Shown one piece after another: positions 23,320 to 27,534 of a stretch of 64,000 nucleotides of DNA (position 1 is its first letter; each line of letters opens with the position of its first letter). The DNA is taken from the sequence record PP925839.1, one strand, 5' to 3'. This DNA is from Escherichia phage PinkRuby. The notes under the pieces were generated by a model, which made no database searches, was not told the origin of the DNA, and saw only the letters and a program-made list of their open reading frames with translations. A program made the position numbers and the translations under genes.

Positions 23320-23349
23320 ATTGTAACACAACACGAGGGACTTGTAAAC
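23320..23349 (-). promoter_or_regulatory. early promoter, cassette copy A
   Basis: Minus strand GTTTAC, 18 nt, TACAAT, then GAGGAA SD and ATG 23288. Confidence 0.65.
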
Positions 23350-25406
23350 TACATCTTGAACTTTTTAGACATTCCGTTGATGTTAACCAAAGAAGCCAAG
23401 ATTTGAGAAACTTCGTTTTCCTCTTCTTTTGATTCTTCTACAAGGAATTGATTAAACCCAGCCATTGGACGAACTTCACCAGTTTCCATTAGATGATCGC
23501 CATCATATACCGATTCTTCTAATTGTTCAGAAGGAGGAACGATTGTGCCTTCGATTAGATACTTATTATAAGCAGTTTCTTTCATCATGTACGTGCTCAC
23601 TTTATTAATCTTCAGCAAAATTCCACGCGGTAAAATAACTTCAGCTTCTGATGGAAATCCTGATAAATGACCTGGAACGATAACTTTGATTCGCTCAGCC
23701 CCTTTAATTACCATACCTACGCTAGTTTCAGCGTCTTCATTCGCATAAGCAGAGTGACTACCCATATGCATTAAATCTTCAGCATCAACTGAACCTTCTC
23801 CTTCGCCAGAAAATACTGCGCCGGAATCATCTAGAGCCATATAGTTTTTACCATGCTCACCGAAGATATTTGGTTTAAGCGATGTGGATACGAAGTTCTT
23901 GAAATAGAACATTTTATTTTCAATATTATGACGTAAAGTTTTAAAAGTAACTTCTTGTCCACGATAAAGCGTAGTTCCTGGAGGAAGAACTGAACCTTTA
24001 GCGAATGCAGAATCCATTGTCTCGATGTGTTTAATAGCTCGTTCCATGTATTCTTCACGGGTAGAATCTGGTTTACCCAAGAGGAACGAGTTCATTTCAA
24101 CATATGAATCTGCACAATAATCTTCTATTACATCAGACTCAGCCTGAGTTAATCCTTTTGGAGTTACTTCGGTGCTTGCGTATTCATATGCCTGAGCAGC
24201 AGATTCATTAATCAATTTATAAATGCCATTCATAACAAATTGAATAATAGCTACCTTTTCGTCTGGCGTGGCTTTAGAACCTTTAACTAAATCATTGATA
24301 ATTTTCTTAATAACATCAAAGCTATTAGAAATATTAATGTCAGCGAGATCGCTCAAAATTTTATCGGTTTTATAATCAAAAAATTCTTTATTCTTTAAAT
24401 ATTCTTGAGAACCTTGATGTGTTATATCGCTCTGCAGTCTGATAGACGGATCACGTAAACGTGCATGAGCCAATGCAATATGATTTCGGAAGCTTTCTAG
24501 TTCATAATCGTTAGATTTAAAACGAGAAGCACTTCTCATACCACCGATAGCTCCTTTGCTGAAGTTTGAACCAATCTGGATAACGCCAGAGTTCATTGGT
24601 CCTTCTGCTTTATATACCGGAACTTTAGATTCAAACTCTTGATATTTCTTGGCAGCGAAGCTATCACCCTGAAGCGAAGCATCGACAGTAGAATATTGAG
24701 CTTGTGCTGCCAATCGACGACTAATTTTAGTTTTCTGAATAACAGCTTGATCCGTGCGCTTATCATTTTCTAAAGCAATAGAAGCAGCAACAGCAACAGC
24801 TTTAGGAACAGCATTACCTGTTTTAACATCTACATAAACATCACCAACCTTTGATTCAACTTTTGTGAATAACTCAGTTGAAATAGGAGGTACACCTGGA
24901 ATGTCTTCTAAATTGGCATTTTTACGGTAAACCATAATATATGCATACTTTTTATCGTAATCCCAGATTTCCTTTAAAAGAACATATCGACCTGCTCCTT
25001 TAGTACGTACTAAACGGTCAGCAATAACTTGCATTTGACGAGCTGCACCATTTGTTTTACTTTTTAGTACGCGGAATAGGCATGCGTCAATTTTATACTG
25101 TTTCATTGTTTGAAGAGCAGTATCAAAAACCGCATTAATGACACCAATTGGATTTCCACCCAAGTTTTTAAGTTTAACTAATGATAGTTTCTCATTAACA
25201 CCTATCATTACGATATGCATCATTTTATCGCCTGGCTTAACGTTTTTATTTGTATCACCGCCAGAGGTGTATGTACAAAATCTAAATCCAGGAAGCACAC
25301 TTTCTTCACCGGCTTGAATAGCAAAAATTTGAGGTATTTTATGCTTAGGATTTAAGTTAACAACCGGCGCCGAAGCGCCGTCAAATAATTCTGTAATAAG
25401 TTCCAT
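23349..25406 (-). CDS. Alt-like ADP-ribosyltransferase paralogue (685 aa)
   Basis: N-terminus MELITELFD...LNPK.KIPQIF shared with Alt; C-terminal R-S-E motifs (YRGQ, FVSTSL, EAEVILPRG). Confidence 0.85.
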   Translation of the reverse strand: MELITELFDGASAPVVNLNPKHKIPQIFAIQAGEESVLPGFRFCTYTSGGDTNKNVKPGDKMMHIVMIGVNEKLSLVKLKNLGGNPIGVINAVFDTALQTMKQYKIDACLFRVLKSKTNGAARQMQVIADRLVRTKGAGRYVLLKEIWDYDKKYAYIMVYRKNANLEDIPGVPPISTELFTKVESKVGDVYVDVKTGNAVPKAVAVAASIALENDKRTDQAVIQKTKISRRLAAQAQYSTVDASLQGDSFAAKKYQEFESKVPVYKAEGPMNSGVIQIGSNFSKGAIGGMRSASRFKSNDYELESFRNHIALAHARLRDPSIRLQSDITHQGSQEYLKNKEFFDYKTDKILSDLADINISNSFDVIKKIINDLVKGSKATPDEKVAIIQFVMNGIYKLINESAAQAYEYASTEVTPKGLTQAESDVIEDYCADSYVEMNSFLLGKPDSTREEYMERAIKHIETMDSAFAKGSVLPPGTTLYRGQEVTFKTLRHNIENKMFYFKNFVSTSLKPNIFGEHGKNYMALDDSGAVFSGEGEGSVDAEDLMHMGSHSAYANEDAETSVGMVIKGAERIKVIVPGHLSGFPSEAEVILPRGILLKINKVSTYMMKETAYNKYLIEGTIVPPSEQLEESVYDGDHLMETGEVRPMAGFNQFLVEESKEEENEVSQILASLVNINGMSKKFKM

Positions 25407-25409
25407 GAT

Positions 25410-27506
25410 TTATCCTTGAACGAACTTGTAAGGCATGTTTGCAATATCTATGCAAGACGCAATAATTCCAAGAGATGATTCTACTTTTTGTTTAACATTT
25501 GATGAAACAAATGATGCAAAGTCAACTCTGTCTTCTATTTCAATATCACCTGTCATTGCAACTACTTCACCAGTTTCCATTAGACGGTCACCGTCATAAA
25601 TTACTGATTCGGTGAGTTCTTCCGTAGTCATAACTTCAGCTTGAATGAGTTTTGTATTATTAGACGTGGTTCCGTCATTATTAGAAGCATCAGTTATTTT
25701 ATTCACTTTGACCATCAATCCGCGCGGTAGAATAACTTCAGCTTCTGTTGCTATTCCGAGACTTCCTGGATATACAACATTAACTTTATGAGCTCCATCA
25801 ATTGCCCATCCTATTTGAACTTTAACGTATTCAGGATTTTCTTTATACGCTCTTATTTCGTTTGGATTAATAGTTATTCCTTCTTCATTTTTATCAACTG
25901 TCAATTCATTACGAGCTTCTGGTTCTAAAAGACCAATACCAGCATGTGTAATTCCAAAACGTCCAAAAATGATAGGAGTTAAAGAAGTAGATACAAAATT
26001 TCTGAAATAGAACACTTTATTTTTAACTAGTGCTTCGTATATAGGAGCAGTCATACTTTGAGCACGATAAACTGTGATGCCTTCCGGTATGCGGTCACCA
26101 TTTTCAAAAGCTGAATCTAAGTTATTTATAGCAGATTCAATTTCTTTTTCACTCATTACATCATATCGTTCTGGATTGTAACGACCTAAAAGAAGATTAT
26201 TGATGTCAGTATATCCTGAACCGCAATATTCTCTAATGCCACGCTTTTGTGATGGAGTATATTTAGAACCATCGCGGGCAATAGTAATATCAATCATTGG
26301 ACCGGCACCAATTCCAGAAAAACTGTAAATCATTCGTTTGAGGAATTTAGTTTTTGCTGCGTTCCAGGAATTTTTAGTTATTTCTTCCCAGACTTCATCT
26401 GGTTGTCCTTTACGATTTTTATTATGATTAGTAAGCCATTTATCTTTATAATCTTCAAAGAATTGATTTACAGCTGCTGCGTATTTCTCTAAACATTTTA
26501 TTGAAGTAGTTGGTTCATTTTTAATCGCATTAAGAATTACATCTTTAATCTTTTCAGAAACTTCATTAACCTCACTTTTTGAAAAGAATTTATAGTCATA
26601 ATGAAGTTCATCTGCAGTTCCTTCAGCAATAATTTTTGCTGCCTTAGTTTTAGAAGCTAATGAATTAATTCCAAGCTTCATTTCTTCTGCTTCGGGAATT
26701 AAAGGAGCTGTAGCAGGTTTATTGAAATTAGCTGCGGTAGATTCATACTTCTGGAATAATTCACTTTCAAATCTAGAAGATTCCAATGACTGACTTTGTG
26801 CAATTGCTCTACGGGAAATTTTAACTTTAACGATTACAGCTTGATCAGAACGTTTATCGTTTTCTTGCGCAATAGATGCTGCAATTGCCTCATTTTTAGT
26901 TACTTGAGCTCCGGTATCTTTATTGATATAAACATCGCCGACCTTCGATTCAACTTTAGTAAAGAGCTCGGTACTAATTTCCGGAACTCCTGGAATGTCT
27001 TCTAGTGATACATTTTTGCGATGTATAAGAATATATGCATACTTTTTATCGTAATCCCAGAGTTCCTTAAGAAGGACGTATCTGCCGCCTGAACGGCTGC
27101 GGATAAGTCTATCAGCAATAACTTGAATTTGTCGAGCTTGACCAGCAGTTTTAGACTTAAGAATACGAAGCATACAGGCATCAATTTTATACTGACGCAT
27201 TGTTTGCATTGCAACAGTAAAAACTGAATTGATGTAATTAATTGGGCTTGGACCGAGACCTTTCAATTTAGCAATTGAGCCTTTAGCAGTTAATGTAAAA
27301 GGAACAATATGCATCATTTTATCGCCCATCTTTAAATCGCGATTAGTATCACCTCCAGATGTATAAGTACATAAACGAAAACCTGGTTGTTCAATTGCGT
27401 CATCAACATGAACTGAAAAAATTTGCGGTATTTTCTTCTTTGGATTTAAGTTTGTAATCGGAAGAGTAGTATCTTCGTCAAATAATTCTGTAATGAGTTC
27501 CATCAT
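25410..27506 (-). CDS. alt: Alt ADP-ribosyltransferase (capsid-packaged)
   Basis: 698 aa; R-S-E motifs (YRAQ, FVSTSL, EAEVILPRG); late promoter upstream. Confidence 0.88.
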   Translation of the reverse strand: MMELITELFDEDTTLPITNLNPKKKIPQIFSVHVDDAIEQPGFRLCTYTSGGDTNRDLKMGDKMMHIVPFTLTAKGSIAKLKGLGPSPINYINSVFTVAMQTMRQYKIDACMLRILKSKTAGQARQIQVIADRLIRSRSGGRYVLLKELWDYDKKYAYILIHRKNVSLEDIPGVPEISTELFTKVESKVGDVYINKDTGAQVTKNEAIAASIAQENDKRSDQAVIVKVKISRRAIAQSQSLESSRFESELFQKYESTAANFNKPATAPLIPEAEEMKLGINSLASKTKAAKIIAEGTADELHYDYKFFSKSEVNEVSEKIKDVILNAIKNEPTTSIKCLEKYAAAVNQFFEDYKDKWLTNHNKNRKGQPDEVWEEITKNSWNAAKTKFLKRMIYSFSGIGAGPMIDITIARDGSKYTPSQKRGIREYCGSGYTDINNLLLGRYNPERYDVMSEKEIESAINNLDSAFENGDRIPEGITVYRAQSMTAPIYEALVKNKVFYFRNFVSTSLTPIIFGRFGITHAGIGLLEPEARNELTVDKNEEGITINPNEIRAYKENPEYVKVQIGWAIDGAHKVNVVYPGSLGIATEAEVILPRGLMVKVNKITDASNNDGTTSNNTKLIQAEVMTTEELTESVIYDGDRLMETGEVVAMTGDIEIEDRVDFASFVSSNVKQKVESSLGIIASCIDIANMPYKFVQG

Positions 27507-27526
27507 ATCCTCTCTAGTGTTTATTC

Positions 27527-27534
27527 TATTTATA
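27527..27534 (-). promoter_or_regulatory. late promoter for alt
   Basis: Minus-strand TATAAATA 21 nt upstream of alt start 27506. Confidence 0.75.

Follow-up and report, generated by a model that had tools for sequence, protein, structure and literature searches.

Two intact Alt-family ADP-ribosyltransferase genes in a probable late operon of Escherichia phage PinkRuby, the second of which is reduced to a remnant in phage T4

Alt is a textbook phage enzyme that is packed in the T4 head, enters the cell along with the DNA and reprogrammes the host at time zero. Here, we describe a pair of adjacent genes, alt and alt2, in Escherichia phage PinkRuby (PP925839.1). The stretch of its DNA that was analysed, referred to as the window hereafter, is 64,000 nucleotides (nt) long, and the coordinates count from window position 1. 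We read the locus as a late operon, alt-alt2, that belongs to a T2-like Tequatrovirus, and both genes encode Alt-family mono-ADP-ribosyltransferases of the C3/VIP2 type with R-S-ExE motifs, for which enzymatic activity is predicted. With a probability of roughly 70%, we consider that the operon provides two intact Alt-family enzymes that are made late, packaged, trimmed by the prohead protease gp21 and ejected, that Alt2 has different or partly overlapping targets, and that T4 has lost Alt2. The two genes and the ribosome-binding signal of the first are as follows.

25410..27503, minus strand: alt (copy 1), 697 amino acids (aa), the Alt orthologue, T2-type allele.
23349..25406, minus strand: alt2 (copy 2), 685 aa, the Alt paralogue.
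27509..27512, minus strand: Shine-Dalgarno sequence GAGG for alt, 5 nt to the ATG at 27503 and 2 nt to the ATG at 27506.

A first-pass annotation had described two adjacent open reading frames (ORFs) of 685 aa (23349..25406) and 698 aa (25410..27506) here, and they were found exactly so. The upstream gene opens ATGATG, and the length of 698 aa (25410..27506, minus strand) counts from the first ATG. The second ATG is favoured as the start because of the Shine-Dalgarno spacing (5 versus 2 nt) and because the annotations of alt in T4 and in phage Ge15 start there; the alt product thus probably has 697 aa and begins MELITE at ATG 27503.

The two proteins match over their full length in BLASTP (42% identity, E = 4e-163). 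The N-terminal part of about 230 aa, which had been proposed to be shared, is 68% identical over aa 1–238, and the central regions, which had been said to differ, are only 11–19% identical; the values for the catalytic domain and the tail are 36–42% and 36–38%, respectively. Recent gene conversion between the N-terminal parts of alt and alt2 was ruled out, as these parts are only about 69% identical at the DNA level. With Pfam PF03496 (ADP-ribosyltransferase exoenzyme), Alt2 scores 72.8 bits and Alt 129 bits, far above the cut-off of 23.4, and the match of each protein to PHROG 802 ("Alt-like RNA polymerase ADP-ribosyltransferase") runs from end to end (1–685 in Alt2 and 1–696 in Alt). Close homologues carry precomputed PF26846 and PF03496 assignments; the local Pfam scan of Alt and Alt2 gave no match to PF26846, and the region that it covers could not be confirmed. 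No NCBIfam model matched either protein. The R-S-E signature that the first-pass annotation had recognised is complete in both proteins (YRGQ or YRAQ, FVSTSL and EAEVILPRG), and its residues and the domains of Alt2 lie at the following positions.

26064..26066, minus strand: catalytic Arg480 of Alt (VYRAQ, 478–482), from the translation.
25983..25991, minus strand: S-T-S of Alt, 505–507 (FVSTSL, 503–508), from the translation.
25737..25745, minus strand: E-x-E of Alt, E587-A-E589 (EAEVILPRG, 587–595), aligned with E-Y-E of CdtA.
23961..23963, minus strand: catalytic Arg482 of Alt2 (LYRGQ, 480–484); the family profile places YRG on YRG of a C3-like toxin.
23880..23888, minus strand: S-T-S of Alt2, 507–509 (FVSTSL, 505–510), from the translation.
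23640..23648, minus strand: E-x-E of Alt2, E587-A-E589 (EAEVILPRG, 587–595); the family profile places it on Q-Y-E of a C3-like toxin and E-Y-E of BECa.
24687..25388, minus strand: N-terminal alpha/beta domain of Alt2, aa 7–240, common to Alt (68% identity).
24162..24686, minus strand: central all-helical region of Alt2, aa 241–415, unalignable with either Alt allele (11–19% identity).
23532..24161, minus strand: ADP-ribosyltransferase (ART) domain of Alt2, aa 416–625 (Pfam match 416–620; predicted fold).

In the HMMER alignments, Y479-R480 of Alt falls on the YR of CdtA, and Y481-R482 of Alt2 falls on the YR of a C3-like toxin; the equivalence of the S-T-S to that of the toxins is one of position inside the Pfam match, not of residue alignment. 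The E-x-E is the arginine-specific form of the (E/Q)-x-E motif. FVSTSL is present in both Alt and Alt2, and the R, the S-T-S and the E-x-E are invariant in 20 diverse family members. This invariance bears on the reading in which Alt2 serves the head chiefly as a structural or core protein and its enzyme domain is inactive or irrelevant. Alt has been described as a component of the prohead core besides being an enzyme (PMC11404850), and insertions in Alt2 cost fitness even in the laboratory host; however, a dead domain would be expected to lose these residues, and the ratio of nonsynonymous to synonymous substitution rates (dN/dS, given below) is uniformly low, so that we regard a purely structural Alt2 as very improbable. 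For T4 Alt, the E577A substitution is reported to be catalytically dead (PMC11404850). Since the residue must, by position, be the second Glu of the E-M-E, which is E576 in the 682-aa numbering, the published number appears to be off by one.

The AlphaFold2 (AF2) model of full-length Alt2 has a mean predicted local distance difference test score (pLDDT) of 72.7 and comprises an alpha/beta N-terminal domain, an all-helical centre (aa ~250–415) and an ART domain. Foldseek searches with this model returned Vis, Certhrax, C3, CDTa, iota Ia and VIP2 (E from 1e-7 to 1e-4), with template modelling (TM) scores of 0.55–0.69 as normalised to these single-domain targets. No structure of either Alt or Alt2 has been solved: phmmer with Alt2 against the PDB gave 0 matches, and Alt and the family profile match toxin ART domains only. 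The Pfam matches exceed the covered stretch of the model by about 26 residues in Alt2 and 56 in Alt, and the motif spacing and a low-confidence segment at 513–554 suggest that the extra residues sit between the S-T-S and the E-x-E. In this toxin family, that stretch is the region of the substrate-facing loops, and it is also the least conserved part between the Alt alleles. We infer that the unalignable centre and this loop region are the likely seat of target specificity. The two proteins have a common build: first a MELITE propeptide, then an alpha/beta N-domain (~7–240) and a helical centre (~241–415), then an ART domain that contains a variable insertion and, behind an L-x-E, an acidic tail.

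The two ends of this build point to the capsid. Mass spectrometry has shown that gp21 removes 6 residues from the N-terminus of T4 Alt, at ITE-6, and 63 from its C-terminus, at LTE-619, which leaves a mature protein of 68.2 kDa (PMC5694885), and the mass that we calculated for residues 7–619 of T4 Alt, 68.2 kDa, matches this value. The corresponding features in the window are listed below.

27486..27503, minus strand: N-terminal propeptide MELITE of Alt with the gp21 site I-T-E, from the translation; ITE-6 of T4 Alt.
25608..25616, minus strand: C-terminal gp21 site L-T-E of Alt, 630–632, equivalent to LTE-619 of T4 Alt and followed by a 65-aa propeptide.
23514..23522, minus strand: candidate C-terminal gp21 site L-E-E of Alt2, 629–631, aligned with the LTE of Alt.
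23352..23513, minus strand: acidic tail of Alt2, 54 aa, after the L-E-E.

MELITE also begins Alt2, and a conserved YDGDxLMETGE block follows the L-x-E in both proteins; the predicted mature masses are 70.1 kDa for Alt and 69.1 kDa for Alt2. From the shared MELITE, the aligned L-x-E and the YDGDxLMETGE block, we argue that Alt2 would enter the prohead by the same route as Alt. Alternatively, Alt2 might be an active enzyme that is not packaged and acts late in the producing cell on host or phage proteins. Alt2 would be made at a late stage, in which an activity of this kind could matter, and no direct evidence places it in virions. Nevertheless, Alt2 has kept MELITE, the N-domain (68% identical to that of Alt), the aligned L-x-E and the YDGDxLMETGE block, which in T4 Alt are tied to the prohead and gp21 (PMC5694885), and this alternative is therefore unlikely.

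Late expression of the pair may be expected from the sequences in front of alt. The late promoter that the first-pass annotation had placed upstream of the first copy is the element TATAAATA at 27527–27534 (minus strand), and position 27534 is also where that annotation had ended the locus. The features that bear on expression are the following.

27527..27534, minus strand: T4-type late promoter box TATAAATA, 24 nt upstream of the alt start at 27503.
27540..27557, minus strand: GC-rich hairpin AAAGGCC-TTCG-GGCCTTT, then AATTTT; terminator-like, ahead of the alt operon, identical in T4.
25413..25417, minus strand: Shine-Dalgarno sequence AAGGA for alt2, within the end of alt and 6 nt upstream of the alt2 ATG.

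The identical TATAAATA element lies upstream of T4 alt, where the hairpin and the start region are likewise identical, and phage Ge15 is annotated with a terminator at the place of the hairpin. The minus strand carries, in this order, DNA ligase (gene 30), alt.1, the hairpin with the late promoter, the gene of 697 aa, that of 685 aa and alt.-3; genes 54 and 48 are on the opposite strand and convergent with the alt-alt2 unit. The stop codon of alt (TAA) occupies 25410–25412, and 3 nt separate alt from the ATG of alt2. Scans found no promoter-like or terminator-like element between alt and alt2, and a promoter of its own for alt2 was rejected, there being none in the 3-nt gap. Co-transcription and coupled translation of alt and alt2 would be the simplest reading. 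A second exact copy of TATAAATA was found at 26123–26130 (minus strand), within the variable cassette of alt described below and 717 nt upstream of where alt2 starts; chance could account for it, or it could be an internal late promoter feeding alt2.

The mutual positional relationship between the window and the T4 reference clarifies what happened to the second gene in T4. In the same interval, T4 has alt (682 aa), alt.-1 (61 aa), alt.-2 (67 aa) and alt.-3. The position of alt2 is the same as that of T4 alt.-1/alt.-2, between alt and alt.-3, and the flanks are collinear with T4. T4 alt.-1 corresponds to Alt2 residues 1–56 (95%) and T4 alt.-2 to residues 62–116 (98%). The part of alt2 that T4 lacks is this.

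23369..25058, minus strand: the part of alt2 deleted in T4, ~1.69 kb, from the DNA alignment; the junction lies in the 9-bp repeat CTAAAAAGT, which is present at both ends in the window.

The junction copy of CTAAAAAGT is at 5105–5113 of the T4 comparison sequence. T4 also has a −1 frameshift at about window position 25243, where an A-run goes from AAAAA to AAAA, and this splits alt.-1 from alt.-2. The first-pass annotation had doubted whether T4 has the second copy in this form, and rightly: T4 is without it and keeps only codons 1–116, split by the frameshift. Pairwise alignment and comparison with T4 Alt and alt.-1/-2/-3, which that annotation had proposed as a check, identified the 698-aa gene as the orthologue of T4 Alt and the 685-aa gene as the counterpart of alt.-1/alt.-2, and the 685-aa protein is identical to no characterised T4 protein. 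Thus, alt.-1/alt.-2 are the remnant of a full-length paralogue that is still intact in the window phage. The T4 record words them as "an old duplication of the first part of gene alt", which understates the loss of a full-length paralogue. The T4 lineage would have lost Alt2 through the frameshift and a microhomology-mediated deletion.

We also examined the prevalence of the two states and the selection on alt2. The 4.9-kb region is 97–99% identical to that of hundreds of Tequatrovirus genomes, the top match being phage Ge15 (98.7%), and 341 records span at least 80% of it. In tblastn, the 685-aa protein was found at an identity of at least 90% in 401 phage records (64 at 99% or above and 332 at 95–99%), and the carriers include T2, RB6, RB18 and AR1; in all but one of the remaining records the best match was below 60%, and those listed are the Alt gene. 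The T4-type deletion junction occurs in one piece in 91 phage records. Because about 400 records hold the intact gene and only 91 carry this junction, intact alt2 is the common state. Among six genomes, dN/dS of alt2 (Nei-Gojobori) is 0.02–0.05 in 14 of the 15 pairs, with dS up to 0.28, and 0.09 in the near-identical pair of the window and Ge15 (4 differences); the reading frame is intact in all six. Thus, alt2 is under strong purifying selection. The reading of Alt2 as a decaying duplicate heading to a T4-like pseudogene state finds its support in the truncated form of those 91 records, T4 included, but it has next to no chance of being right: with a frame intact in 6 of 6 genomes, a dN/dS of 0.02–0.05 and ~400 records at 90% or more aa identity, the selection and prevalence data refute it for the window.

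The upstream gene also differs between the two phages, in its own way. Window Alt is 98% identical to T2 Alt and 71% identical to T4 Alt overall; against T4, aa 1–238 are 100% identical, the centre 33%, the catalytic domain 65% and the tail 92%. The differing stretch is as follows.

25650..26790, minus strand: allelic cassette of Alt (centre and catalytic domain), aa ~238–618, ~380 codons, which differs between the T2 type and the T4 type.

The DNA identity to T4 is 0.95–1.00 before the cassette, 0.27–0.75 within it and 0.9–0.98 after it, and its left boundary is sharp, near window 26790–26810. Between the two alleles, dS is 0.16–0.18 in the flanks, 1.66 in the centre and 1.26 in the catalytic domain. 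The T2-type allele occurs in about 316 records and the T4 allele (about 71% identical) in about 211, and both are found with intact Alt2 (a48 and AR1 carry T4-type Alt together with Alt2). Thus, this part of alt is an old allelic cassette that has been moved around by recombination.

Published functional data are available for a pair that is nearly identical to that of the window. Bas37 (Escherichia phage KarlGJung, MZ501089.1; Alt2 QXV82013.1, Alt QXV82014.1) has the same lengths (685 and 698 aa), the same 3-nt spacing and the same neighbours, and the window proteins are identical to its proteins at 681 of 685 (Alt2) and 692 of 698 (Alt) positions; these four and six substitutions make no difference of substance. 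The BASEL records, the deposition of which is judged from the accession series to date from 2021, name the 685-aa gene accordingly, the GenBank note on QXV82013.1 being 'ADP-ribosyltransferase Alt2'. The HIDEN-SEQ preprint reports that T4 Alt is required to evade the Mokosh type I defence and that Bas37 Alt, when supplied on a plasmid, fails to stand in for T4 Alt against it (10.1101/2025.11.20.689424); because of this failure to substitute, the T4 and Bas37 Alt alleles differ in function. The main text of the preprint is silent on Alt2, which the authors did not follow up, and the data are found in Extended Data Table 7 (10.1101/2025.11.20.689424). In the K-12 reference library, the TA sites hit are 164/179 for Alt (bas37_0033), classed as "Non-essential", and 116/164 for Alt2 (bas37_0032), classed as "Intermediate"; the mean insertion counts in the K-12 controls are about 204–213 for Alt and about 42–45, that is, about 5-fold lower, for Alt2 (10.1101/2025.11.20.689424). 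In the comparison of K-12 delta-RM with Mokosh type I, insertions in Alt go from 213.1 to 0.0 (log2 fold change, log2FC, −7.74), while those in Alt2 go from 41.6 to 105.3 (log2FC +1.32), the adjusted p being printed as 0.00000 for both (10.1101/2025.11.20.689424).

Two points follow from these data. One is that intact Alt2 cannot replace Alt, since Alt insertions are lost and Alt2 insertions are enriched under Mokosh type I in Bas37. The other is that alt and alt2 are not redundant, given their opposite responses in the Bas37 transposon data. These points speak to the possibility that Alt2 is a redundant spare Alt that has the same targets and function and raises the injected dose. The architecture, the catalytic motifs, the propeptide sites and the operon are indeed the same, and T4 manages without Alt2. 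Nevertheless, the centres are unalignable (11–19%) and the catalytic domains only 36–42% identical, under Mokosh type I an intact Alt2 of Bas37 does not make up for a lost Alt and the fitness effects of the two are opposite, and the strong purifying selection acts on a sequence very unlike Alt; a spare copy is thus quite unlikely. Together with the unalignable centres, the Bas37 transposon data back the hypothesis of distinct specificities of Alt and Alt2, which the first-pass annotation had also suggested.

A further interpretation of the same data, which we put forward as rather doubtful, makes Alt2 a second effector delivered by the capsid, with targets of its own and a trade-off: useful in ordinary hosts and counter-productive with Mokosh type I. 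If this were true, the modification by Alt2 could feed or trigger Mokosh type I. The trade-off would then explain why Alt2 was deleted in the lineage of T4, which has the Alt allele that is stronger against Mokosh, and it would also explain the two ancient alleles of the catalytic and central cassette of Alt.

The reading that we prefer, of two packaged enzymes with different or partly overlapping targets, can be laid out as a sequence of steps. Alt and Alt2 would be made late and built into the prohead core via their shared N-terminal part, and gp21 would trim both at the I-T-E and the L-x-E, to about 69–70 kDa. Both would then leave the head together with the DNA and, ahead of any phage gene expression, ADP-ribosylate host proteins at arginines. 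Alt (copy 1) would be the enzyme that acts on RNA polymerase alpha Arg265 and would also counter Mokosh type I, the modification of Arg265 having been established for T4 Alt only (PMC2988021). Alt2 would act on different or only partly overlapping host proteins, with a specificity that its unrelated centre and the variable loop region within its ART domain would provide.

Several points weigh against this reading. The packaging, processing, injection and activity of Alt2 are all deduced from its sequence, and searches of the literature found neither proteomics of virions nor an enzymatic assay or a list of targets that covers Alt2. The capsid-targeting role of the N-terminal domain is putative even for T4 Alt. 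Another point is that alt2 has no promoter of its own, so that its expression depends on transcription that reads through from alt. The structure that AF2 predicts for Alt2 is of moderate confidence (pLDDT 72.7), and the loop region to which we assign specificity is its least confident part. Finally, the low transposon counts of Alt2 could come from toxic truncated products rather than from a loss of function.

The N-terminal domain deserves a comment of its own. The fold of the Alt N-domain (Alt2 aa 1–240, 24687–25406) gave weak matches in Foldseek against viral models (TM about 0.4–0.55); these were to the N-terminal regions of large uncharacterised proteins of the unrelated phages Erwinia phiEa2809, Vibrio VP-1 and Agrobacterium Atu_ph07, and some of the matching proteins are annotated as zeta-toxin, deaminase or ParB. 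Fusions of the N-domain to other effectors were not confirmed by HMMER against 1.84 billion representatives, which returned only 74 clusters, nearly all of 600–712 aa. When ten of these HMMER matches were scanned against Pfam, six had an ART domain and four had no Pfam domain. It is possible that the domain is a general capsid-delivery module that also occurs in other large phage proteins, and we regard this as a lead rather than a finding.

The genes and signals on either side of the operon are the following.

27556..27744, minus strand: alt.1 homologue, 62 aa, the last gene of the ligase transcription unit, 98% identical to T4 Alt.1.
23320..23348, minus strand: sigma-70-like promoter TTTACA-17-TACAAT with TG, from the promoter scan, directly after the alt2 stop codon (23349–23351) and ahead of alt.-3.
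22998..23288, minus strand: alt.-3 homologue, 96 aa (DUF5498, PF17602), 99% identical to T4 Alt.-3, the downstream neighbour of alt2.
22972..22993, no strand assigned: bidirectional terminator-like hairpin between alt.-3 and gene 54, where Ge15 is annotated with a terminator.

The product of alt.1, upstream of the alt late promoter, matches Pfam PF24647 (Phage_blade; E = 6.5e-29). As for alt.-3, mutants of T4 with a C-terminal extension of Alt.-3 evade the CmdTAC defence (PMC11618068), and the Bas37 orthologue is conditionally important on strain CFT073 (log2FC −2.70, adjusted p 0.02). Farther away, ORFs of 1287 and 261 aa follow ORFs of 1289, 371 and 221 aa at window 57350–62029 (plus strand), a layout that resembles the long tail fibre genes 34–38. 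If the 261-aa ORF is the product of gene 38, as we presume from ORF size and order only, its length would fit a T2-type adhesin and not the shorter T4 type. In Ge15, a 'transposase InsD' gene lies just past a 357-bp coding sequence downstream of gene 30.1 (9571–10901 of the Ge15 comparison sequence), and the window has an 840-bp (279-aa) ORF at the equivalent place (29470–30309); Ge15 may carry an insertion sequence element near gene 30.1 that the window is without.

Phage ADP-ribosyltransferases are again actively studied, for RNAylation by ModB and for roles in anti-defence. By our reading, most T-even relatives, T2 included, would inject two different Alt-type enzymes, of which the T4 reference has lost one, and therefore work in T4 alone misses Alt2. 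Alt2 is conserved, selected and, in published screen data, non-redundant, and its targets are a gap worth filling. The Bas37 screen data make the biology of Alt2 directly testable with regard to its targets, its presence in virions and the reason for its loss in T4.

The pair is not new, having been annotated in hundreds of genomes, named Alt2 and discussed in print. T4 Alt (NP_049811.1), which ADP-ribosylates Arg265 of RNA polymerase alpha (PMC2988021), is the positional orthologue of the 697-aa gene of the window and has the same propeptide sites and R-S-ExE motifs; with Alt2 it has the architecture in common, at only 41% identity. T4 alt.-1 (NP_049810.1) and alt.-2 (NP_049809.1) are a broken gene, whereas alt2 of the window is intact. 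Nolan et al. (2006) listed alt.-1/alt.-2, ORF187c/188c of 44RR and ORF183c of RB49 as duplications of alt, with one full-length in 44RR (PMC1524935); by this description, 44RR and RB49 resemble the window in having tandem Alt paralogues adjoining alt, but they belong to distant genera. A 2026 paper reported two Alt-like paralogues with 43.29% identity in 6phi13 and SHFML-11 and proposed functional divergence after duplication (PMC13600099). This is the idea of the first-pass annotation, the interpretation of which is therefore correct but not new. T4 ModA and ModB, by description, stand apart from Alt and Alt2, being reported as early and non-packaged (PMC2988021). Finally, the toxins C3, VIP2, iota Ia, CDTa, Vis and Certhrax have the catalytic fold and the R, S-T-S and (E/Q)-x-E in common with Alt and Alt2, but these bacterial R-S-E toxins are without the N-terminal domain and helical centre of Alt and have no gp21 propeptides.

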